From Candidatus Hodarchaeota archaeon (GTDB taxonomy: Archaea; Asgardarchaeota; Heimdallarchaeia; Hodarchaeales; Hodarchaeaceae), in NCBI GenBank assembly GCA_016839815.1, contig JAEOTM010000204.1:1-64000 (forward strand): a DNA stretch of 64,000 nucleotides. Direction: 5' to 3'. The position numbers were made by a program, and so were the translations under genes. The notes beneath the pieces were generated by a model that was not told the DNA's origin, searched no databases, and saw nothing but the letters and a program-made list of their open reading frames with translations. Of the stretch, positions 29,514-48,382 are shown one piece after another; within the stretch, counting starts at the first letter, position 1, and every line of letters starts with the position of its first letter.

Positions 29514-30572
29514 ATGACAAAGAAAAGGAGGCAAATTCCGAGAAAAAAAGGCTCAACAGTTAACACGATTTTAGAGAGTCCATTTGAAAACTTGGAAAAG
29601 GTGATATCTCATTTAAAAACAGGTAATAGTCGCTCAGGATTATTATTAGCAGCAACTGATTCAAAAGGATCACTTAAAAAAAAGAAAACGAGGAATAAAC
29701 AATTCAAGCCCATTTTTTCAAAATTTGACGAGGTTTTTGTAGTCTGTCAAAATTGTGGTAAAAGATCAATATACAATGAGTTAATCTCTGGAATCTGTTT
29801 CACTTGCCATAATCAAGAAGAATTGAATCGTGTGGAGAAACAACTTAAGGAATCCAAGACTGAACAGCAAATTGTTAAATTAATTTCTCGTCTGGGTGAA
29901 TTAGAGACACAAATGAAATCTCTGGAAAACAAGCAACAAGAATTCACCTCGGAGGATTATTTATCAACAGTAATCGAAGAAATTAGTGGTACAGTCCGAG
30001 ACAGTATTACTTCTAATCTTACACAGCTTACAAGTAGTACACACTCCCCTTCCTCTCCCTCAAGTTTTAAAGTGATCAATCCCCCACCCCCGCCACCACC
30101 TCCAGGAGCCATACGTTCCCCAACACAACAACTTACTCCATCAGCAACTACTTCACATATCAATTTTTCCGAGCTAACTTTAGAGGAGTTATCAGCTTTT
30201 TCTTCACAAACACTGAATTCTCTATCATTAGAACAACGAAATAAATATACTCTTAGAATCAAAGAGCTACAACGACTTGAAAAAATGTCCCCCGCTGAAC
30301 GGAAAGCATATTTTCAAGAAAAAACAACTTTCAAAAAACAACACTCCGACCGCCAAAGCGTTATTACTAGTCTTGAAGATTTATCCAACCCTCTATTCAG
30401 AAAGATGAAGGAACAGGCAGATAAAACTATATTGGCGGGGAAAGGTACATTTGGCTTTTTTGCAGAAAAAAAGGTATTCATGCACTGTCACAACTGTAAC
30501 AACACGAATCAGATTATTGAGGGAGAAGAAGCGACCTGTAAATTCTGTAAGTCCCCCCTCAGCAATCGATAA
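29514..30572 (+). CDS. zinc-ribbon / coiled-coil / polyproline protein
   Basis: Two CxxC..CxxC ribbons, coiled coil, Pro8 run at 30081-30104. Confidence 0.75.
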   Translation: MTKKRRQIPRKKGSTVNTILESPFENLEKVISHLKTGNSRSGLLLAATDSKGSLKKKKTRNKQFKPIFSKFDEVFVVCQNCGKRSIYNELISGICFTCHNQEELNRVEKQLKESKTEQQIVKLISRLGELETQMKSLENKQQEFTSEDYLSTVIEEISGTVRDSITSNLTQLTSSTHSPSSPSSFKVINPPPPPPPPGAIRSPTQQLTPSATTSHINFSELTLEELSAFSSQTLNSLSLEQRNKYTLRIKELQRLEKMSPAERKAYFQEKTTFKKQHSDRQSVITSLEDLSNPLFRKMKEQADKTILAGKGTFGFFAEKKVFMHCHNCNNTNQIIEGEEATCKFCKSPLSNR

Positions 30573-30578
30573 TTTCAA

Positions 30579-30677
30579 TTGACTTGTCCGATATCAACTT
30601 CAAAATATTGACTTTTTGTATGACAAGCTTTAAAAGTTAACAAGTCATTTGACAAGTTAAGATAGTTGACTTGTCAA
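30579..30677. promoter_or_regulatory. array of TTGACWWGTCAA-like palindromes around the satD promoter
   Basis: TTGACTTGTCCG 30579, TTAACAAGTCAT 30637, TTGACAAGTTAA 30649, TTGACTTGTCAA 30666; TATA-like TTTAAAA at 30629. Confidence 0.7.
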
Positions 30678-30724
30678 CAAACCAATTTGTAGATATTGAA
30701 AAACATCCGAGTAGTGAAGATACA

Positions 30725-31360
30725 ATGTTGTATTATGTGTTAACTTGTGATATCGTACATTCAAAAGAGATCACTAATCGACTTGCGGTTCAAGAAGAAT
30801 TAAAAGCAGTAATTAATCAAATTAATGTTGATTATTCAGAAAAACTACTTTCTCCCCTAATCATAGTATGGGGAGATTCATTTCAAGGGGTACTAAAAGA
30901 GTTGAAATATTTTAACCAAGTTTTTGAGCGTTTAGAAGATGACCTTTCATTTAAATTTCGTTGTGGTTTAGGAATAGGAACGATTAGCACTAAATTCTCT
31001 AAGATATCAATGGAAATGGATGGTCCAGCTTTTCACAGATCACGAGCGGCTTTGAAGATTGCAAGTGAAAATCGTCGTACAGTTTGGATACAATCAGAAA
31101 ACAAATCATTTGACCAATTGACAAATTCCTTATTAACTCTTTTAACTATCTTAAAATCAGGATTGACAGAAAGGCAAAAACAGGTAATTGCACTTCGAAA
31201 ACAAGGTTTAACATATGAAAAGATAGGAAAAACAGTTAAAACAGATAATAAACTGAAAATTACTAAACAAGCTGTTTCAAATATCCTTTCTAGTGCCCAT
31301 TGGGAGGAAATCTCATTAGCAATAGAAACATTAAATAATTTAACCTATTTAGAGAGTTGA
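30725..31360 (+). CDS. SatD-family protein (cyclase-like domain + HTH)
   Basis: 'LTCDIVHSK', 'WGDSFQG', 'MDGPAFHRSR', 'LTERQ...TKQAVS'; ATG 30725 preferred over TTG 30671, which lies inside a palindrome. Confidence 0.88.
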   Translation: MLYYVLTCDIVHSKEITNRLAVQEELKAVINQINVDYSEKLLSPLIIVWGDSFQGVLKELKYFNQVFERLEDDLSFKFRCGLGIGTISTKFSKISMEMDGPAFHRSRAALKIASENRRTVWIQSENKSFDQLTNSLLTLLTILKSGLTERQKQVIALRKQGLTYEKIGKTVKTDNKLKITKQAVSNILSSAHWEEISLAIETLNNLTYLES

Positions 31361-31377
31361 TCCTAGGAGGCTATTAA

Positions 31378-31794
31378 TTGTTTCAATGGGATTTATTTGT
31401 AATTCTTGTATTGCTTTACTTATGCGCTTACATTTGGGCAATTTTTGGGGGGGCAGTATTTGTAGGTCGTCTCTTATCACCCTATAAAGATAAAGATTCA
31501 ACCAAAAAACCAATGGGTCTTTCAGGAGCAGGAAGAAAGATTGGGCAAATCGAAAGAGCAATTATTCTAACATTGGCATTGATGGGAGAATTTGGTACAA
31601 TTTCTTTTGTATTCGTTGCTAAATCAATGGCTAGATTTGAACAATTAAAAGAGCGTGAATTTGCTGAATATTATTTGTTGGGAACATTATTGAGCATTTT
31701 CTTCGCACTATTCACCGCAATTTTAATCCAAGGTATAATCACATTGATTACAGTTACTCTAATTCCAGAATTACAAACTCTATGGGGATCATAG
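31378..31794 (+). CDS. DUF3307/SatE-like membrane protein
   Basis: 'GAGRKIGQIERAI', 'AKSMARF', 'AEYYLLGTLLS'; usual partner of SatD. Confidence 0.85.
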   Translation: MFQWDLFVILVLLYLCAYIWAIFGGAVFVGRLLSPYKDKDSTKKPMGLSGAGRKIGQIERAIILTLALMGEFGTISFVFVAKSMARFEQLKEREFAEYYLLGTLLSIFFALFTAILIQGIITLITVTLIPELQTLWGS

Positions 31795-31932
31795 GAATAG
31801 TTATCAGCTTTGCGAAATTTAATAGTGCAATAAATCGAAGAAAGTTTCTCCTACAAACTTAAATATTGCTAGAAATATACAACTCATTTGATTATTCACA
31901 TAAAAATTCAAGGTCATTTGAGGAAATAAAAA

Positions 31933-33057
31933 ATGACATTAAGATCACTAAAAGAATTTGGACTAGAATTTATTAACGAAATGGCTAAAGACCGAAAGGT
32001 TTCTCAACAAGAGATTGGCGTAGTGGTCTCAGGTACGAAAAGTACACTACTCTCTCAGGGACTTCCGCACTTCAGTTATCAAGATATTGACAAATTAGTC
32101 AAGACTATTCGTAAAGAGACAGCTCGTATTGTGGATAGTGAATTAACGCGGATAACCATCAAATCATTGGGTCGATTCAAGGAGGGATTATCTGAAGGTG
32201 GTTTTATTGTCCAAGATGAATTATCACCTGAACAGAAAGAAGAATTAGAGAATCTGCGAGAATCAAATCAAGAATTTAAGATTCTAATCAAAGAAAAAAA
32301 TTCTGAGCTAAAGCAACTAGAAGACGAAAGGACTGGAATCCTTTCTCAGCTTGCTGAAAAAACGGATAAAATGACCACATTAGACGCTGATGTCAAGCGT
32401 GTTCGATCGCAGCTCGAAAATCAACAAAAAGAGCTTGAAGTTCATCAAACTCAATCTAAGGAATTGATCACTGAACTTGAAATGAAAGAAGCCTTAATCA
32501 ACAAATTGAAAGAAAACGAGCTGATTCATGAGAAGGATATCCAAGAAGCATTAGCTTCCGTAGCGGAAACTTACCAAATTCAAGAAAACTATTATCAGCG
32601 GATGCTTGAAGAAGGAATTCAGTCTCGGACAAAGGAAATCCGTCAAGAAATGAAGATTGATCTGGAAGAAATGAAAACAAAATTAGACACACAAAGTCAT
32701 CGATTAGAGGAAACCACACGACAACATAGAATTACTGTAGATCGATTGGAAGAAGCTCTGACTCTTGCTGAAGAAGAACTTTCAGATGCTAAATCCGAAT
32801 TGAAAAAAGCAATTACTGAACGTCTTGAGAAGAATGTACTGCTTGATTATACACAACGATTACTATCCACTCACCCGTTATACGCTTCAATCCTCATTTT
32901 ATTGAATTTAGGAGGTGTCCTCGATCTTCCGACATTAGCCATGTCTGTAGGGGCACATCCACTTAAATTGAGACAGATGCTTGAAGACCTCGTAAGTAAG
33001 GGTTTAATTACCATATCTTCAGACGATCCTCCAACAATCGCTGCGGTAATGGTTTGA
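31933..33057 (+). CDS. long coiled-coil protein with C-terminal winged helix
   Basis: About 210 aa of heptad-rich sequence followed by 'LDLPTLAMSVGAHPLKLRQMLEDLVSKGLITI'. Confidence 0.75.
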   Translation: MTLRSLKEFGLEFINEMAKDRKVSQQEIGVVVSGTKSTLLSQGLPHFSYQDIDKLVKTIRKETARIVDSELTRITIKSLGRFKEGLSEGGFIVQDELSPEQKEELENLRESNQEFKILIKEKNSELKQLEDERTGILSQLAEKTDKMTTLDADVKRVRSQLENQQKELEVHQTQSKELITELEMKEALINKLKENELIHEKDIQEALASVAETYQIQENYYQRMLEEGIQSRTKEIRQEMKIDLEEMKTKLDTQSHRLEETTRQHRITVDRLEEALTLAEEELSDAKSELKKAITERLEKNVLLDYTQRLLSTHPLYASILILLNLGGVLDLPTLAMSVGAHPLKLRQMLEDLVSKGLITISSDDPPTIAAVMV

Positions 33058-33076
33058 GAATTCAGAAATTATTGAA

Positions 33077-35212
33077 TTAGTCGAAAGTAGGTTGATAATA
33101 GTTTTCAGCATAACTTTCTCTAAGACGGATCTGAACAGGCTTATTTTTGAGCATTTCAAAGATAGAAGAACTTGAGGAATTTAGCTCGAATTGGTCAGTT
33201 TTTATTAGTGTCACATTCTTATTAACTGATATCAAACACCGTCGTTCATCAGGTTTTGCTTTTAATAGGGAACTCATTTGATCATAAGTCTCTTTTGTAA
33301 CTCCTAATAAATTCGCAATTTTATATGGATCAAATTTCGAATAAAACATTGTAAGAACACCCGCATTCGTCAGCATGGGCAGATCTATTATTGGGTCTGT
33401 TCCTATAAAAACCATTGACACATCATATGCTCGTAATGTCCATGGTCCTCGACCAATTATTGATTTAGGGGTTGAATGCTTAAAGGGTGTTTGTGGTAAA
33501 AGCTTGTTAATTTCGTCCAGGATAATTACATTCTGAGGTAGTTTTTCCTCCTTGAAAGGAGGCCGAAATTTTCGAATGTAATAGTAAAGATACTGGAATA
33601 TTACTTCCAGGAGTAATTGACGGCCTCTAATATCCTCCATTGCTTCAAATGATGATAAATCCAAGATGATATTATGAGAAAGAAATTGAGAAATATCAAA
33701 AGTACTAGAAGTTACGGTAAAGCATCTTCCTGTATTCCCAAATAATAATTTTGTAATACGATTGATAGTGCCCGCAGAGGTGTTTTCTAAATATGCACCT
33801 TTAAGACCAAGGGCATTAGGTTTATTTAACCATTGCAGAAATAGTTTGAAGTCACCTTTTTCTTTGATAGTCTGAATTGTTGCTAATTGGATTAACCGTC
33901 TCATCTGAGGAGATAAAGAATCAGTATCATCAACTATATTCTCAAGTAATGAAACCACAAATTGAATATGATCTTCTGGGGATATTAATGGTTCACCCCG
34001 GGGATCTAATGGAATGTCAAAGATATTGATTCCCCAAGGAAACGAATTAGATCCAAGTTTAATATAGATAAAATCCTGACAAAATGTATGTACGGGGTAT
34101 ATATATTCACCTTTAGGATCGATAATTAGGAATTTCACTTGATTTTGATGAAATTCTTGAATTAAATTGAAGATAAATCTACTTTTCCCTTCTCCTGTCA
34201 TCCCGAATACCCCCATGTGTCGTGATAAATCTTTCCCTGAAAGAATCATAGGAGAAGATGATGTTTTTCCACTCATAATTGGTATACCAATTTTAATAGT
34301 TTCATCTGTATCAAGATGAGATGCTGGAGAAGATACTCTGTATTTTTCCTTATGAGGAACGATTTGATAGCCAAAAAGCGAGTACTGATTGGTAGGAAAT
34401 GATAGAAATCTCATGAGTGTAAAACCATCTGTGAGAAGAGATGGTTGAATTGAACGGTTTCTAACATGTGCTTTAAATCGATTGAAAGATCGTAAAAAAG
34501 CAGGATATTTTCGTGTCTTGATTCCATGGGCCTTTAAAAAGACAGCGACTCGTTCCAACTTAGTCTTAAGCTGCTCCTCTGTACGTTCGACTGCTAAAAA
34601 TCGAATCGCTAGATTAAAACAGCCAGATTCTTCCATAAGATTCATACTATAAGGTTGAAAGCGATGTTCAACTTTTCCTTCGTGAATATTAAATCTGACT
34701 TGGTTTCTATTGTTATTCTCTTCTTGGGAACGGAATTCGTTAGGAATTTTTTCAGAGATGAAATTAATCTGAAAAAGGGCAAAAGTGGGATCTTCAGTAA
34801 TGATTTCAAGTAATCCATTCATAAAATTTACGTGTGTTGTAGAGGGGATGGAATCTAACTCCAGACCGAGTAAACCTCCACTGTGAAGACACGGTTCTTC
34901 AGGATCGAGAAAAAATTTTGATTCAATCATACTCAAAAGCTTGGGTATCGGATCTCTACTTGGTTCCAAAAAATCTGAATGGAGTCCAAGAGAAGTTACA
35001 AATTGTTGAAGTGTCGCTATTGCAGATTGGGTATTCTCTTTGAAAAAACGTCTCTTAGGTTTAACATGCATGCATATGTGAACCGTTTTGGGTTCAAATA
35101 TTGCATATTCTAAAGTAAAAGTATGATGTACGTTTCTTAGAATATTAATGCAAGAATGATCAGTTTTTTCAGGTACGAATTCGAAATGAAATGAGGTAGG
35201 CCTAGCTTGCAA
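33077..35212 (-). CDS. HerA/FtsK/VirB4-superfamily ATPase (DUF87)
   Basis: 'RHMGVFGMTGEGKS', 'IIDPKGEY', Walker B 'IILDEIN'. Confidence 0.88.
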   Translation of the reverse strand: MQARPTSFHFEFVPEKTDHSCINILRNVHHTFTLEYAIFEPKTVHICMHVKPKRRFFKENTQSAIATLQQFVTSLGLHSDFLEPSRDPIPKLLSMIESKFFLDPEEPCLHSGGLLGLELDSIPSTTHVNFMNGLLEIITEDPTFALFQINFISEKIPNEFRSQEENNNRNQVRFNIHEGKVEHRFQPYSMNLMEESGCFNLAIRFLAVERTEEQLKTKLERVAVFLKAHGIKTRKYPAFLRSFNRFKAHVRNRSIQPSLLTDGFTLMRFLSFPTNQYSLFGYQIVPHKEKYRVSSPASHLDTDETIKIGIPIMSGKTSSSPMILSGKDLSRHMGVFGMTGEGKSRFIFNLIQEFHQNQVKFLIIDPKGEYIYPVHTFCQDFIYIKLGSNSFPWGINIFDIPLDPRGEPLISPEDHIQFVVSLLENIVDDTDSLSPQMRRLIQLATIQTIKEKGDFKLFLQWLNKPNALGLKGAYLENTSAGTINRITKLLFGNTGRCFTVTSSTFDISQFLSHNIILDLSSFEAMEDIRGRQLLLEVIFQYLYYYIRKFRPPFKEEKLPQNVIILDEINKLLPQTPFKHSTPKSIIGRGPWTLRAYDVSMVFIGTDPIIDLPMLTNAGVLTMFYSKFDPYKIANLLGVTKETYDQMSSLLKAKPDERRCLISVNKNVTLIKTDQFELNSSSSSIFEMLKNKPVQIRLRESYAENYYQPTFD

Positions 35213-36983: not shown

Positions 36984-37320
36984 CCATAGAAGAAATAATT
37001 CTTATTTCTATTTCTTAAATCGGTTTCAATTAAGCTTACAATATTACGTATGATAAAGGAACACCAAAATCTAACTTTTATGTTTCTCAAATGTGATTGA
37101 TTTTGATGTGAGTCGGAATAAATACTATTTTACTCTCAGGATTAAAAATCCATTCGTCTACTCGGGAAGTAGTACCCAATTGATACATTTTGAGACGTTC
37201 AATTGATTACTTCTTAGAATAAAGCGAATAAAACTTTCTAGACTAAAATAAATAAAATTCTATTGAAAGAAGTATCAACCAAAGGATGGAGAGTAACCTA
37301 AATTTACCCATGTACATCTG

Positions 37321-37385
37321 TGTTCTAAAGTTAGTACAGGTTTATAGGGTGTTAGAACACCTCAGAGCGATAGAAAGGTTTAAAT
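37321..37385 (+). promoter_or_regulatory. palindromic operator + half-site + BRE/TATA of the SBP-wHTH operon
   Basis: TGTTCTAA-AG-TTAGTACA (37321-37338), TTAGAACA (37352-37359), TAGAAAGGTTTAAA (37371-37384). Confidence 0.7.
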
Positions 37386-37405
37386 CCAGTGTTTGTAAGG
37401 AAAAA

Positions 37406-39631
37406 ATGATATATCTACAACGATTAACAGTGGAATCAAAGGATAAATATGAAATGATAAAACGAAATGTCTTTTTATTGCTTCTAATAAACTTATTTCT
37501 ACTTTCATTTCTAAATTCATCTTATACTCCAATTTTGTTAACGCTACCTACTTCTTCAAATCAAAAAATTCAGGTTATTGATTATGGGGGAGATTCAAGT
37601 GAAAACCCACCTGAATCAATTACAATGATTAATCTTGTTATTGGAAGGAACAGGGTACCAATTTTCCACCCTATGCGTGATATTCACAACATTCTTTCAC
37701 TCCCATTTGATACGCTTGTAGAAGTAAATCCGACGACCGGGGAAGTACATCCGTCTTTAGCAAGACAATGGTTTGTTACCAGTGACAGTATGCATTACAC
37801 ATTCTATCTTCATGAAAATATTTATTGTCATGATGGATCAATTCTAAATGCTAGTGCTGTAGAGAGAACTTTTAATGCAATCCTTAATGAAAACAATTCA
37901 AGATTTCATCGTGAAGGTGGGTTACAGGAATTCTATACTACACCTCTTGACTCTGTAGAAATACTGAGTGAATACTCAATTCGAATAAATTTCTTTGAAC
38001 CATTTTCACCTTTCATCATGTCAATTGCTTCAAGAATTAGAATAGAATCACTCCTGGGTCCTGCTAATACTAGTACAGTAGAAGAAGTAGATTATGATTG
38101 GCCCATGGGAAGCGGTCCTTATGTTTTTCAGGGCGTAACTGCTGAAGAGGAATTTTATAACTATTCTTTCACTCGTTTTGAGAATTATTTCCGAGGATTA
38201 CCTCCTTTTAAGAACCTTCAGTATCATTTATACTTTGATCGCGAGTCTGCTGTTGAAGCTATAATTGCAGAAAAGGGGGATACCGCCCCTTACTTATCAT
38301 CTGTAATGAATTCCTCAGAATTAAACGAAAATTATTGGCAATATTACCCACTTCCCAGAGGGTTAGATTATGCTCTTCTAAATCATAATCGTGTTGAATT
38401 ATCTAATGAGAAAGTACGTCTAGCCCTGAATTATGCAATTGATAAAGAAGAGCATCAGAAGTACTTTAGTACTGATAAATATAGGAAATTTTATTACACA
38501 CACGATTTTATTTTAGACAACTCCTTACCGAGTAATTTCTCACGGCCTTTATATCCATATGATCTTTCGTATGCAAACCAGTTGTTGGATGAAGCTGGAT
38601 ATCCTGAAGGAATGGATGGTTATCGATTCTCCTTGGAAATTACAGGTCTTCCATGGATGGAATCCCATATTTTATTCTTACGTCCCTATCTTGACGCAAT
38701 TGGTATAAATTGTACCTATAAACCCCTAACTCCAACAAATTGGTGGGAAGTATACTATGCTGGTACATACGATATTTATATTGCTGGATATTCTTTTGAG
38801 TGGGATTGGATCTATAGTGCCTATTTAATGTTCCATTCAGATGGAACCGAGAATACTTGTGGAATTTCCGACCCTGATTTAGATTATTATATTGCACTCG
38901 CCTATCGAACTCCCCTGGGGATAGGACAGGAAAGACAAAGTTATCTAAACAGAATAAAACAGATACTCATAAATTACGCACCCCATATTCTTCTGAATGA
39001 ATTCGATTATGGCTGTTTAAAGACAAAAGAAGTCTCATCTTACGTTTGGTTCGATCCTATTCCATACTGGGGAATTTACTTCAATTATACCAGTTTTACT
39101 GAGACATTTCAACCACTAGTTGAGAGAGCAATAATTGACAGAGAATCAGTTTTTTTTCCATCAACAGATGGATTAATAACCACCGAGGATACATTAACAG
39201 TTTCGATTGAGCTTAGTCACGAACTACAGACATTTCTGCATGAATCAACAGAAACAGGGAAATTCTACAAAATTCTCGTCTCAAATCAAACAAGTAAATA
39301 CAGGCTTCGTTGTTTCTATGACTCAGACGAACTTCAAGGATTCCTTCCCGATGAACTTCATCTAAATAAGTGGGATAGCAATAGTCAGGTATGGAAGAAT
39401 ACTCAAATGGTTGAAAGAAATATCCTGTTCCAATATATCGAGATAGAGTTACGTGGTGATTCGATAATCCGCTTGGGAGAGAAAATTGAGGAATTTCTGC
39501 ATGTGATTACCTACAGGTTTCTACCAGGAATAACTATAGCCGTAGGAGTTCTTGTAACAATTGCAGCAGTGAGTATTCTTGCTAATAGAAAATTCACAAG
39601 GTATTTTAAGGAGGAATATCGATTAAAATGA
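37406..39631 (+). CDS. family-5 (OppA/DppA-like) solute-binding protein with extra C-terminal domain and TM anchor
   Basis: 'PSLARQW...YTFYLHENIYCHDGS', 'PMGSGPY', 'KVRLALNYAID', 'ANQLLDEAGY'; start 37406 or 37454 (track start 37286 lies upstream of the promoter). Confidence 0.88.
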   Translation: MIYLQRLTVESKDKYEMIKRNVFLLLLINLFLLSFLNSSYTPILLTLPTSSNQKIQVIDYGGDSSENPPESITMINLVIGRNRVPIFHPMRDIHNILSLPFDTLVEVNPTTGEVHPSLARQWFVTSDSMHYTFYLHENIYCHDGSILNASAVERTFNAILNENNSRFHREGGLQEFYTTPLDSVEILSEYSIRINFFEPFSPFIMSIASRIRIESLLGPANTSTVEEVDYDWPMGSGPYVFQGVTAEEEFYNYSFTRFENYFRGLPPFKNLQYHLYFDRESAVEAIIAEKGDTAPYLSSVMNSSELNENYWQYYPLPRGLDYALLNHNRVELSNEKVRLALNYAIDKEEHQKYFSTDKYRKFYYTHDFILDNSLPSNFSRPLYPYDLSYANQLLDEAGYPEGMDGYRFSLEITGLPWMESHILFLRPYLDAIGINCTYKPLTPTNWWEVYYAGTYDIYIAGYSFEWDWIYSAYLMFHSDGTENTCGISDPDLDYYIALAYRTPLGIGQERQSYLNRIKQILINYAPHILLNEFDYGCLKTKEVSSYVWFDPIPYWGIYFNYTSFTETFQPLVERAIIDRESVFFPSTDGLITTEDTLTVSIELSHELQTFLHESTETGKFYKILVSNQTSKYRLRCFYDSDELQGFLPDELHLNKWDSNSQVWKNTQMVERNILFQYIEIELRGDSIIRLGEKIEEFLHVITYRFLPGITIAVGVLVTIAAVSILANRKFTRYFKEEYRLK

Positions 39632-40203
39632 ACTCTCCACTCCAAGAGAATGATAATTCGAATCCTCCAATATTCTCATTATCATCTCATTATGGATCTG
39701 CAACCTTCATTCAAAATATTCTAGACTCAGGATCACCAACCATGTCAAAAGAATCACAAAAAACGTTACATGAAGATTTATTAAAAGGAAAGACTCTTCA
39801 AGTGTACTGGTGCCTTCTTACACATGGTAAAACAGGGGTTCGGGAAATCCAGCGTCTCCTTGATTTTTCATCGCCTGGAATTGTATCTTATCAACTGAAT
39901 AAATTAATTGAAGCAGGAATTGTAGCTAAAGACGAAGTGGGTGAGAAATATTATATTACTGAGGAAGTAAGGACCGGTATCCTAGGCTTTTATATCCGAT
40001 TTGGTTATCGAATTATTCCCCGTTTCACGATTTACTTATGTTTATGTATTTTAGGTTTATCTCTGTTTTTTTTGCTTGCATTGGTCATGGGAGATGACTT
40101 TATACAGCATCCAGGTAGTATTTTATTTTTTATTTCAATGGTTCTTGGAATTTTAGTTTTTGTTTTGGAATCAAAGAGAATTAGAGATCTGAAAATGCAT
40201 TGA
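39628..40203 (+). CDS. membrane-anchored winged-helix transcription factor
   Basis: 'GKTLQVYW..GVREIQRLLDFSSPGIVSYQLNKLIEAGIV' wHTH followed by two TM helices; ATGA overlap with the SBP stop. Confidence 0.85.
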   Translation: MNSPLQENDNSNPPIFSLSSHYGSATFIQNILDSGSPTMSKESQKTLHEDLLKGKTLQVYWCLLTHGKTGVREIQRLLDFSSPGIVSYQLNKLIEAGIVAKDEVGEKYYITEEVRTGILGFYIRFGYRIIPRFTIYLCLCILGLSLFFLLALVMGDDFIQHPGSILFFISMVLGILVFVLESKRIRDLKMH

Positions 40204-40301
40204 AGAGGATATATTTCTATTTTTCAAATCTAAATGACTAAAGGTTCAGCTAAACGTATTGATGTGACATTTCTTTTAACCTTCAAATGGCCTTGTCAAG
40301 A

Positions 40302-40376
40302 TGTACTAACCATAGAACAGGTTAGTTCATTGTGTACCAACGTTAGAACGACAGAAAACCTAGAAACGTTTAAAAA
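40302..40376 (+). promoter_or_regulatory. two palindromic operators + BRE/TATA upstream of the secreted protein
   Basis: TGTACTAA-CC-ATAGAACA (40302-40319), TGTACCAA-CG-TTAGAACG (40333-40350), TAGAAACGTTTAAA (40361-40374). Confidence 0.72.
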
Positions 40377-40446
40377 TATCTTTATTTTCTTAATTAGAAC
40401 ATGTATAGGGGTTGAAATGATAAACTATACATATTGAGGACAAAAA

Positions 40447-40956
40447 ATGAATAAAACAAAGAAATTTTCAGCTATTATAGGACTTACATTATTGGTAAGC
40501 ACCTTTTTGGCAGGAACAATGATAGTACAAGCGAAATCTTCACATACAAGGCTTAGTTTCGTATACACGCTAGTTCCTACAGATATGGGAGACCCTGAGC
40601 CATGGCAATCAGGGAAAGTATGGCATCTTCGAAATGTTGGTCATATCGGTGAGGCTTGGAGTGATACGGCAGATTTCTACGGAACGGTTAGTTACCTGGG
40701 GAATTTGAATCTTTTTGATGATCTAAATGCACCTACAACTATGAACAGCGTGGGTTGGGGTGCCTTTAGTTTTACAGGGTGGTATAATGGGGAATATGTG
40801 AGCTTTGAGGGGACCCTTGTTCTGAAGATAAACGATTTTTATGTAACAGGGATGTTTGTCTGCAAGGGAAGTGATGGATTTCAAGGAATGCGAATCATGG
40901 GGATTTTTGAAGGAATCATTGGGACAGTTTATTCTGCTCAATGTATTATTCATTAA
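40447..40956 (+). CDS. small secreted beta-rich protein
   Basis: Signal peptide 'MNKTKK...VQA', Gly/aromatic beta pattern, SD GAGG, oligo-T terminator at about 40980. Confidence 0.8.
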   Translation: MNKTKKFSAIIGLTLLVSTFLAGTMIVQAKSSHTRLSFVYTLVPTDMGDPEPWQSGKVWHLRNVGHIGEAWSDTADFYGTVSYLGNLNLFDDLNAPTTMNSVGWGAFSFTGWYNGEYVSFEGTLVLKINDFYVTGMFVCKGSDGFQGMRIMGIFEGIIGTVYSAQCIIH

Positions 40957-41011
40957 ATAAACCAGGATTCCCCTTCCTCTTTTTTTTTGACAGATCTGTA
41001 TTCTACTAAAT

Positions 41012-45399: not shown

Positions 45400-46260
45400 A
45401 TGAAAAATCGAACTAAAAGTTTTACGCTTAGTATTGCATTTGTTATATTATTATTCGGGTTAACTATCTCAACGACTCAAGTTTCTGTGGGAACCAGTCC
45501 CATGATAGAAATTCCTGGCAGTTTTGTTTATACGGTAGATTCTAACCATTTTGATATCGGAATGTTAATTGGAAATTCAATGTGTTTGGAATTCACTAAA
45601 TTAAATCCTACTGAATTACCATACAATGTAGAAGATAGAATGAATTATACATTGATCGACGTACAACCTGACCAGTACATATTTGACGAGATCATCTATT
45701 CACCTAATGGTACTATTCATATGGAAGGAAATTATTCAGTTTCCAGACTCGAAATTAGAATTCCATTATTTGTTACAACAAACAACCAAACACTGATTCA
45801 GGAGGCTTTCAGTACCACTCCAGATTGGAATATCTCTTACTTCGAATATTTTCTTTACATGAAACAAACAGCTTATGATTATCCTGAACTCGGAGATACC
45901 ATGTACTCAGAGTATGTTTACGACAGTCGTTCTGGATGGTTGATGAGCTTATACCAAAAGAGGACAGCAGCAGATCAAACAATTACAATGGAAATGGAAC
46001 TTATTGCCATTACTGCGACATTGCCCCCAATAACAACTATTCCCCCTACCTCAACTGAAATCCCAACAACAATGGAAGAAACTTCAGAATCAACAACAGA
46101 ACCGACATTGGAAAATACAACAACATCAGAGCTGACAACTGATGATTCAAATACTTCAACTAATACCACGACTATCCCAGATATCTCGAGTTTTGTAGGA
46201 TTCGCGGAAATTCTCGGAGTAATCGCTTTCGTAATTGTCATCTATCGTAGGAAAAGATAA
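45400..46260 (+). CDS. cell-surface protein with Thr-rich stalk and C-terminal anchor
   Basis: Signal peptide, 'YDSRSGWL', Thr/Ser-rich linker, 'VGF'-TM-'RRKR' tail. Confidence 0.8.
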   Translation: MKNRTKSFTLSIAFVILLFGLTISTTQVSVGTSPMIEIPGSFVYTVDSNHFDIGMLIGNSMCLEFTKLNPTELPYNVEDRMNYTLIDVQPDQYIFDEIIYSPNGTIHMEGNYSVSRLEIRIPLFVTTNNQTLIQEAFSTTPDWNISYFEYFLYMKQTAYDYPELGDTMYSEYVYDSRSGWLMSLYQKRTAADQTITMEMELIAITATLPPITTIPPTSTEIPTTMEETSESTTEPTLENTTTSELTTDDSNTSTNTTTIPDISSFVGFAEILGVIAFVIVIYRRKR

Positions 46261-46852: not shown

Positions 46853-48382
46853 ATGAGTAAGATAGAGAATTTGAAGAAAAGCCTCAACACTATCTTACTC
46901 CAATTTCCCAAGTTTGTTGAAAAATATTCACTAGAGGATCAGCAATTAATAGCTGAGTTTTTAAATGTAATAAAATTTTATGAGGAGGCAGATAACCGTC
47001 GAAATGTACTATTAGCACGCTTTACGGAATTTATCACTAAAACGAGAAATAGAAAACAATACTACGACTTACCCTTTCTCGGATTAACTGTAGTAATCGC
47101 AGAGAACGCAGTATATCACTTAAGTATTGCACGATTCTACCCCTTGGAGTTTTACAACTCACTTTTACAGCAGCTTCGGCCCCTTTTTCAACTTATTAGG
47201 CGAATAGAACCATTAATTAGCTTGAAGTATGAGGAAACACTCCAGGCGACAAGAAGTCTGTACTCACCATTATCCTCTGATGAATATCGACTGTTACAAT
47301 ATACATATTCTCTTCTAAAATCAGAAGGATTAACATCTTTAAATTCTAATTATATTAAAACAGAATTTGGAAAAAAAGAAGATATTCCCAGACGATTAAA
47401 AAAGGAAATAGAAATTTCTCGTTTTTATACATTAATTGAGGGCAGATGGTGGATTCATTTTCATTTTCCAGCCTTTGGATTAAGTCAAGTAGTATTTCAT
47501 TTTGAATTAATTGATAACACATCATTAATTGATCTAATTGACCTTAATAATCCGAATAACACAGTTTTAACCTATAGTAACGTTTTTCAAGTTTTGAATT
47601 CAAACAGTGAATATATTGGTATTTTCACTATTCCCAATAACGATATTAATCTTCTTAAGGATCTTTTTCAACGGTATGAACAGAGTAGATTAGTCAAACG
47701 AAAAGAATTAACTGTAATCAGTCATCGACTAAGGAGTACATCTTTTGATTATTATAAGGAGGAAAAGGGGTGGAGGAACTTATCAGCTAACAAAAAACAA
47801 AGTATTAAACAAGTATTGAGTTCTACAGATCCTGAAGTATATAATTTGGAGCAGAGTTCCTTTAATATTCCAAATTTTAACAATTCAAATTGGTCATTCT
47901 CTGAACACCAATCTCCTGAAAAAATTATCAAATTTTTTTGTACAACACCTTCTGAATTCGCTTATACAGGTCTTCCATTAAACATACCTTCATCAGACTA
48001 TCCTAACTCTCTTAATAGGGATGACATTGAGTTAATACATTATTTTTATTCACAAAAGGTATTAAGTATAGGTTTTATTCCTTGGCGTTTAATAGATGAT
48101 TATTCGTTAAATATCTATGTTGTAAAGGTTCCAGCTGTGCCATTAGCGAAGTTAGAGCACTTCTTAAGTGTTATTCCTTATGCCGAGATTTATTTTGCTC
48201 CAGATAGTTACTATCTGTGGACCGTTCTCCCACCCACTATAATCAGCTGGATAAAAAATACTCTTAAATGGTCTATCATTCCTGTACAACGAATTCATGT
48301 AAGACAGGAATTAACATCAGAGTGGTTTGATACGAAATCACTATTATGGACTAGACCTGAAATTTTGGGACGAAATAAGTAA
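46853..48382 (+). CDS. large putative regulator with Lrp/AsnC-like segments
   Basis: 'PLSSDEYRLLQ...FHFPAFGLSQVVFHF' and a second copy 'LNRDDIELIH...'; TATA 29 nt upstream. Confidence 0.55.
   Translation: MSKIENLKKSLNTILLQFPKFVEKYSLEDQQLIAEFLNVIKFYEEADNRRNVLLARFTEFITKTRNRKQYYDLPFLGLTVVIAENAVYHLSIARFYPLEFYNSLLQQLRPLFQLIRRIEPLISLKYEETLQATRSLYSPLSSDEYRLLQYTYSLLKSEGLTSLNSNYIKTEFGKKEDIPRRLKKEIEISRFYTLIEGRWWIHFHFPAFGLSQVVFHFELIDNTSLIDLIDLNNPNNTVLTYSNVFQVLNSNSEYIGIFTIPNNDINLLKDLFQRYEQSRLVKRKELTVISHRLRSTSFDYYKEEKGWRNLSANKKQSIKQVLSSTDPEVYNLEQSSFNIPNFNNSNWSFSEHQSPEKIIKFFCTTPSEFAYTGLPLNIPSSDYPNSLNRDDIELIHYFYSQKVLSIGFIPWRLIDDYSLNIYVVKVPAVPLAKLEHFLSVIPYAEIYFAPDSYYLWTVLPPTIISWIKNTLKWSIIPVQRIHVRQELTSEWFDTKSLLWTRPEILGRNK

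Follow-up and report, generated by a model that had tools for sequence, protein, structure and literature searches.

Organization of the locus

The 64,000-nucleotide stretch analysed here (the window; contig JAEOTM010000204.1 of Candidatus Hodarchaeota archaeon) derives from a 4.24-Mb genome with 7630 open reading frames (ORFs), belonging to the Hodarchaeales of the Asgard archaea. On its forward strand lies a cassette comprising a gene for an anchored solute-binding protein (SBP), the sensor candidate, and an overlapping gene for a small membrane-tethered winged helix-turn-helix (wHTH) regulator, followed by a gene for a secreted protein. An original prediction had read these genes as a transmembrane signalling regulon with a shared operator, and on re-reading of the window its three ORFs and all of its motif coordinates were borne out. 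The regulator start does overlap the SBP stop, in an ATGA at 39628; no ATP-binding cassette (ABC) permease or ATPase gene occurs among the neighbouring ORFs; and the extra C-terminal domain and transmembrane anchor claimed for the binding protein correspond to an all-beta domain and a C-terminal helix in its AlphaFold model. The features are listed below, BRE denoting the transcription factor B recognition element.

37321 to 37338, unstranded: first operator site of the operon, an 18-bp palindrome with 0 mismatches, at the same position in orthologues
37342 to 37359, unstranded: second operator site of the operon, half-degenerate but preserved in its right half, at 21-bp spacing from the first
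37371 to 37384, forward strand: probable operon BRE/TATA element, TAGAAASGTTTAAA, in which TTTAAA starts 19 nt after the second site
37454, forward strand: probable start codon (ATG) of the sensor, its ORF running to 39631; orthologues begin at the matching position
37454 to 39631, forward strand: sensor candidate gene, encoding a signal peptide, a family-5 solute-binding domain, an all-beta stalk, a single membrane helix and a cytoplasmic tail that is short and basic
39485 to 39631, forward strand: conserved C-terminal membrane tail, the proposed docking helix (T-F/Y-x-Y/F-L-P ... N-R/K ... EE-Y/F)
39628 to 40203, forward strand: membrane-tethered winged-helix gene, encoding an N-terminal extension, the wHTH and a pair of membrane helices joined by a roughly 9-residue loop
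40302 to 40319, unstranded: distal operator site of the target promoter (1 mismatch, 15.9 bits)
40333 to 40350, unstranded: proximal operator site of the target promoter (2 mismatches), 31 bp after the distal site
40361 to 40374, forward strand: probable target-gene BRE/TATA element, TAGAAASGTTTAAA, with 13 of 14 bases as at 37371
40447 to 40956, forward strand: secreted 169-aa candidate target with a signal-like N-terminus
40981 to 40989, forward strand: T-tract, the probable target-gene terminator judging from archaeal oligo-T termination

An upstream ATG at 37286 was rejected as the sensor start, being placed 5' of the operon promoter.

The sensor candidate and the regulator

Residues 96-463 of the sensor candidate match the Pfam family SBP_bac_5 (PF00496; E 1.3e-47), hereafter SBP5. 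Its AlphaFold model (predicted local distance difference test, pLDDT, 85.9) comprises the SBP body, the stalk, which is all-beta and some 120 residues long, and a single C-terminal helix of 42 residues, and fold searches with the whole model returned SBP5 structures only. Sequence identity to the NikZ/DppA structures is about 20%, and the nearest solved structures at this level bind nickel complexes, peptides or glutathione. Vibrio chitin-binding proteins matched the sensor-family profile at E ~1e-24, far below the DppA/NikA-type matches, and every NCBIfam equivalog scored far under its cut-off. For the stalk, a sequence search of the PDB gave no match and atlas scores were at most 0.81. The SBP scaffold is well conserved across the family, with 37 invariant columns in 21 sequences.

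The regulator (191 aa) gave wHTH matches that fell under the Pfam cut-off, to TrmB (E 4.7e-4) and ArsR (E 4.9e-4); TrmB matches are present in 23 of 24 members of its family (best E of the wHTH-type matches 2e-7), which numbers 857 representatives at E<=0.001. This wHTH very probably binds DNA. About 25 residues separate the wing from the first of two hydrophobic helices, located near residues 135 and 162 by hydropathy only, and nearly all family members likewise have two. The helices are joined by a loop of about 9 residues and the protein has no outer domain; a sequence search found no relative of solved structure. An alternative start at internal Met39, with the overlap arising by chance, is ruled out by the recurrence in orthologues of both the N-terminal extension (about 40 residues) and the ATGA overlap.

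Regulator and SBP were searched for separately over 41 related genomes, and the SBP-only search, blind to the wHTH, landed on the same places as the regulator search. When a profile of the stalk and tail was run over 301 genomes of the phylum, it gave 32 strong matches (E below 1e-30), 28 of them in the same genus and 4 in another Asgard family. A gene for a wHTH protein with two transmembrane helices (wHTH-2TM) lies directly downstream in 32 of 32, the outcome of a check on this linkage that had been set beforehand. Permease and ATPase genes are absent from the operon here and from the orthologous cassettes examined; at one locus (L037) a permease-like ORF lies about 4 kb from the cassette. 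The host genome has 15 SBP5 genes in total, two of them linked to a regulator, since a second copy of the cassette lies on contig C119; the 13 others mostly end in ordinary sorting anchors. Among the other genomes, one SBP match contains one TGA stop (G009:C1:1101511-1103421), and the wHTH gene in G020:C157 (L043/L103) is seemingly broken or mis-called (a 94-aa ORF).

The membrane tail as the constant part

The original prediction had cast the SBP as the sensor half of the pair. The linkage upholds that pairing, but the SBP is not its constant part; this is the tail, which carries four unrelated outer domains. A tail profile built from 20 SBP5 tails, all from other genomes, retrieved from the host genome just the two regulator-linked SBPs (E 1e-16 and 4e-9; next match 0.05). 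The same profile matches 13 further partners with unrelated outer domains (E<=2e-5), and nothing else below 0.01 in those loci. In these other Asgard genomes the regulator is preceded by a NosD-type beta-helix, an SBBP propeller or an SBP_bac_1 domain, and the alternative cassettes mostly keep the 4-nt overlap with the regulator gene. Asn710 of the sensor tail is invariant. At locus L182, no wHTH follows a related SBP5 in which the stalk is joined to an ordinary anchor. On these sequence comparisons, the conserved unit is the membrane tail, and the SBP is just one outer domain out of four or more that can replace each other. In a regulator tree (142 columns, midpoint root), the tailed forms are one supported clade (100/96), with SBP5 partners deepest and the other outer domains nested inside. 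One 19-kb contig (L035, G018:C282) carries three cassettes, two with SBP5 and one with SBP_bac_1, among about eight secreted anchored proteins and forms a surface-protein island.

The operator and its promoters

Scanning the genome with the consensus of the original prediction was circular, and only sites with 0-1 mismatches exceeded permuted palindromes (5 against 0.8); the sole perfect match in the 4.24-Mb genome is that at 37321. Because that consensus had been derived from these same sites, the scan matrix was retrained on foreign promoters. Genome-wide, the foreign-trained matrix placed 37321 first (22.6 bits) and 40333 second (21.0 bits), and it found four sites of at least 19 bits, compared with an average of 0.7, and at most 2, for permuted matrices. 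The proposal that the 18-bp palindrome stands before both promoters thus survives an independently trained matrix. Unseeded Gibbs sampling of 23 promoters of other genomes yielded TGTACTAACGTTAGTACA at 15.4 bits, compared with 8.1-8.5 in shuffles, and a check for the motif at homologous loci found it conserved there, again at the same position in orthologues. Operator variants also precede beta-helix cassettes and partner-less regulators with four transmembrane helices (4-TM forms); hence, the operator belongs with the wHTH and not with the SBP.

The arrangement of the sites is regular. Operator repeats are spaced 21 or 31 bp apart, 21 bp being the commonest secondary spacing in related loci, and across loci a TATA-like element lies 19-20 or 40-42 nt 3' of an operator, at a fixed helical phase; in orthologues the operon element lies 40-41 nt after the first site. 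From the last operator base to TTTAAA we count 19 nt in the operon and 18 nt in the target promoter. The two-site, 31-bp layout behind the wHTH is kept in three other genomes, where the gene that follows changes from a barrel to a propeller. All mapped sites lie 5' of the BRE/TATA element and none over it, in keeping with the activator-like placement originally proposed, such upstream sites being the usual position for archaeal activators (PMC5512572). Activation is accordingly placed by us as the likely outcome rather than repression. Autoregulation, though not its sign, is supported by the presence of the operator before the regulator's own operon.

Candidate targets

Neighbouring genes were counted in tailed loci only, a site being a match of 12 bits or more. 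The operator precedes 24 of 28 sensor genes and 14 of 38 secreted neighbours (one of which is a cut sensor copy), compared with 1 of 50 other neighbours, and this lone case is a mis-sorted surface protein. A secreted class of target, as originally proposed, is therefore upheld, but the 169-aa gene as a conserved target is not: it has one homologue only (73% identical, in one other genome), and other loci carry other surface proteins in its place. On this evidence the putative targets are surface proteins that differ from locus to locus. The low-confidence model of the 169-aa protein (pLDDT 47) matches 2q03 (Z 11.4, root-mean-square deviation 3.5, 124 aligned), and its atlas score as DUF3224 is 0.83; as a lead only, the predicted structure is probably an eight-stranded barrel like DUF3224.

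A large regulon in the host genome was considered and rejected, genome-wide counts below about 17 bits being equal to those of controls; from the scan, the regulon looks small. Another strong site (C45:823, 20.8 bits) precedes a minus-strand secreted protein with Kelch-like ends. At C119:1017, an operator with a BRE/TATA element lies some 500 nt upstream of the second SBP; the interval yielded no gene, and the site possibly represents an orphan promoter or a small RNA. Further strong-site candidates are C78:16101, with no gene found behind it, and C135:9037.

Within the window, the cassette is followed by an anchored alkaline phosphatase (PF00245; 42067-43743), a Thr-rich anchored surface protein (45400-46260) and a 509-aa protein without a Pfam match (46853-48382), none of which has a strong operator site. 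On the other side, positions 29514-35212 contain three ORFs: one for a protein of 352 aa that has a polyproline stretch and two Cys-x-x-Cys pairs, one for a coiled-coil protein of 374 aa and, on the opposite strand, an ATPase-like one of 711 aa.

Variation within the regulator family

Relatives of the regulator occur in several other settings. At L109, L111, L113 and L131, four-helix regulators (2TM-wHTH-2TM) face DppB-type permease genes across an operator-holding intergenic region; L111 and L113 have a second, fused permease-like gene nearby, and a transporter-linked branch of the family is possible. Other subclades follow N-terminally anchored partners, either a DUF3160 protein of 730 aa or an uncharacterized one of 230 aa, and have three degenerate operator copies at 21-bp spacing (L126-L129, L133, L139, L140, L142; L132, L134, L135, L137, L138, L141). 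The regulators at L150-L152 and P0172 are wHTH-2TM proteins extended at the C-terminus by one more helix plus an outer domain (550 aa), and a lone wHTH at G000:C62:8555-11393 stands behind the same kind of upstream gene. A 352-aa, seven-helix form (L086, L087) fuses the wHTH-2TM to a copy of the adjacent membrane protein, which itself has an operator upstream. Finally, a conserved wHTH-2TM subclade (G000:C117:38154-38645; L163-L167) lies in housekeeping surroundings, without a surface partner or an operator match.

A proposed model for signalling by the cassette

A 2:2 complex of the regulator with the stalk and tail was predicted with a score of 0.55 (best control 0.00), which lends weak support to the pair. 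Among benchmark pairs, 58 of 80 solved and 2 of 110 mismatched ones attained the mark set for this score, but just 7 of the 80 solved pairs, and both mismatched pairs, did so with a value no higher than 0.60. Between runs, 95% or more of the contacts were the same, with a partner pLDDT of at least 65. Since the regulator has no outer domain, contact between the partners would have to be in or at the membrane, and we consider physical contact through the tail to be likely.

Our preferred reading, held with some but not strong confidence, is that the cassette is a two-protein, kinase-free membrane sensor-activator unit in which a change in the outer domain switches the regulator. The tailed protein would act as a single-pass surface receptor whose helix and short cytoplasmic tail pack on the two membrane helices and the cytoplasmic face of the regulator, and translational coupling would ensure that the two are made 1:1. 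A wHTH dimer could occupy each 18-bp palindrome, so that several dimers, 21 and 31 bp apart, would line one face of the DNA. From just upstream of the BRE/TATA element, the regulator would activate both the operon that encodes it and nearby genes whose products are surface proteins, either secreted or anchored. A change in the outer domain, most likely a ligand in the SBP5 cleft, would be relayed by stalk and helix and would switch or stabilize the regulator; ligand binding as the trigger seems to us only marginally favoured.

Several observations weigh against this reading. The pocket-lining segments of the SBP are strongly variable across the family, a pattern that may reflect changing ligands or no ligand at all. 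Several Opp/Dpp-type ABC permease pairs are encoded elsewhere in the host genome, and the sensor may work in transport with a permease in trans. Regulator family members without a tailed partner exist, both as 4-TM forms and in the G000:C117 subclade. The operator stands in cis to the cassette, and co-inheritance alone explains part of its conservation. In favour of the reading, operator positions 6 and 13 are complementary in 33 of 50 sites (18.8 expected), and variable positions tend to shift on both arms together, but these counts are inflated by symmetric-matrix site selection and by kinship. Likewise, the Fisher p of 1.6e-5 for the operator among neighbouring genes is too strong, related genomes being non-independent. 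Four sequences fuse signal peptide, beta-helix, transmembrane helix and wHTH-2TM in one chain, yet their membrane helix differs from the tail and is unscored by the tail profile, and at the syntenic locus L190 the same kind of beta-helix gene is unfused and has an ordinary anchor. For these two reasons the fusions are probably secondary; nevertheless, their architecture shows that an outer domain, one helix and the regulator can form one unit. The fusion helix and the N-terminal helices of the 4-TM forms were also considered as homologues of the tail and rejected on that lack of a score.

The same pair might respond instead to a signal other than a ligand, the tail serving as chaperone, anti-activator or protease shield, as proposed for ToxS and TcpH, while the outer domain reports the state of the envelope, for example its own folding, cleavage or shedding, so that the unit keeps the supply of surface proteins in balance. 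We regard this as unlikely, though a serious contender. The sensor outer domains include the beta-helix and the SBBP propeller, the same classes as the regulated targets; a single ligand-driven movement is unlikely to be common to four unrelated folds; the pocket segments of the SBP vary, as just described; and the role suggested for ToxS is to guard against degradation (PMC9214523). Yet two of the four outer folds, SBP5 and SBP1, are binding-protein folds, the SBP scaffold is well conserved even as its pocket varies, and SBP5 partners occupy the deepest branches of the tailed clade, subject to the midpoint root and 142 columns of that tree.

Rather improbable, in our estimation, is the absence of any signalling contact, with the tailed SBP being the first target of an autoregulated factor and an ordinary Opp/Dpp uptake receptor, and the regulator sensing something else, such as membrane state or transport. 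The permease pairs and other permease-less SBP5 genes of the genome are compatible with this, as are the partner-less regulators and the four loci in which the operator lies between a 4-TM relative and a DppB-type permease gene facing it. It leaves unexplained, however, why only proteins encoded immediately before the regulator carry the tail and why this has persisted across three outer-domain changes, including to folds that serve no ABC transporter, and why the ATGA overlap is kept and the wHTH lost behind a tail-less relative. The regulator might also be a repressor, or be freed by proteolysis, with output through derepression or regulated intramembrane proteolysis. TrmB/ArsR-like wHTH domains do include repressors; the mapped sites nevertheless lie upstream of, and not over, the BRE/TATA element at a fixed helical phase, and the loci examined contain no conserved protease gene, leaving this the least probable of the explanations considered and a very doubtful one.

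Relation to known systems

The co-component systems VtrA/VtrC, ToxR/ToxS and TcpP/TcpH resemble the cassette in having neighbouring, often overlapping genes for a tethered DNA-binding factor and a membrane-anchored sensor, without a kinase (PMC9214523). Their factor has an HTH, one membrane helix and a ToxR-like periplasmic domain, whereas the regulator here has two helices and no outer domain; their partner is a lipocalin-like barrel, in place of which we find SBP5, a beta-helix, a propeller or SBP1. The Asgard partner further differs in that its gene precedes that of the regulator, its anchor is C-terminal and its folds are swappable. The original likening to a kinase-free ToxRS/CadC system thus holds for the two-gene, kinase-free logic but not for a ToxR/ToxS-like periplasmic contact, the regulator lacking an outer domain. 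Archaea are unmentioned in the account of co-component systems by Kinch et al. (2022; PMC9214523).

A family-5 SBP that directly controls a membrane DNA-binding protein has a precedent in CBP-ChiS of Vibrio cholerae (bioRxiv 10.1101/2020.01.10.902320). CBP is periplasmic, has a second role with an ABC transporter and is presumed to contact the hybrid kinase ChiS at its periplasmic domain; here, in contrast, the SBP is itself single-pass and the 191-aa regulator has neither kinase nor outer domain. By analogy, the best reading is that the cassette would work like ToxR/ToxS or CBP-ChiS while being a member of neither.

Within the archaea, ArnR/ArnR1 of Sulfolobus acidocaldarius is likewise an activator with an N-terminal HTH and two C-terminal membrane helices, and it binds an imperfect inverted repeat and controls surface structures (PMC6396743). 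ArnR is, however, a one-component protein in which HAMP and sensor domains intervene between the HTH and the membrane; these are absent from the Asgard regulator, whose gene is coupled instead to that of a separate tailed surface protein. Halobacterium salinarum has archaeal signalling SBPs that act through a membrane receptor, in the pairs BasB/BasT and CosB/CosT; the output there is chemotaxis, not transcription, and the outer domain of the receptor is dCache-like (PMC8050422); in that review, archaeal signalling SBPs are chemoreceptor-linked only. The regulator does have the broad features of a transmembrane transcription regulator (TTR), a predicted DNA-binding domain and at least one membrane helix (PMC10269533). 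The TTR census of Demey et al. (2023; PMC10269533) counts 1,384 archaeal TTRs; ArnR is apparently the sole archaeal entry in its table of characterized membrane-bound regulators, and its main text mentions neither Asgard archaea nor a solute-binding partner. With the Opp/Dpp/Nik ABC importers the sensor shares the SBP5 fold, but not the permease and ATPase genes of their operons. SgrR is a cytoplasmic single chain of wHTH and SBP5, in contrast to the two genes and exported SBP found here; its model NF010149 scored 21.6 bits against a cut-off of 476, and no SBP5-wHTH fusion was present among the four longer homologues returned.

Implications

Archaeal routes from an outside signal to the genes are poorly known, and among the histidine kinases of archaea 62% lack any predicted membrane segment (PMC5847659). 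In the literature searched, which lay largely outside subscription papers, we found no description of a kinase-free cassette that links the outside to genes in archaea. Within that literature, the original claim of novelty holds for the combination but not for its parts, which are known from ArnR and from BasB/CosB.

Taken together, our findings establish that the cassette is real and conserved, and we read it as a probable form of partner-controlled membrane transcription regulator with a swappable-receptor design. For an Asgard lineage, it gives receptor, regulator, operator and targets together, making each step testable in vitro or heterologously. Should the tail prove to be a genuine docking module, the cassette would represent a minimal natural design for wiring single-pass receptors directly to transcription. 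It is tempting to go further and to see in it a plug-and-play platform, in which joining any outer domain to the conserved tail would create a receptor able to switch a small membrane activator through intramembrane helix-helix contact; we rate this broader idea as possible, with the chances somewhat against it. Were it true, the platform would be a signalling class apart from one-component, two-component and known co-component systems, and one found in the closest prokaryotic relatives of eukaryotes.

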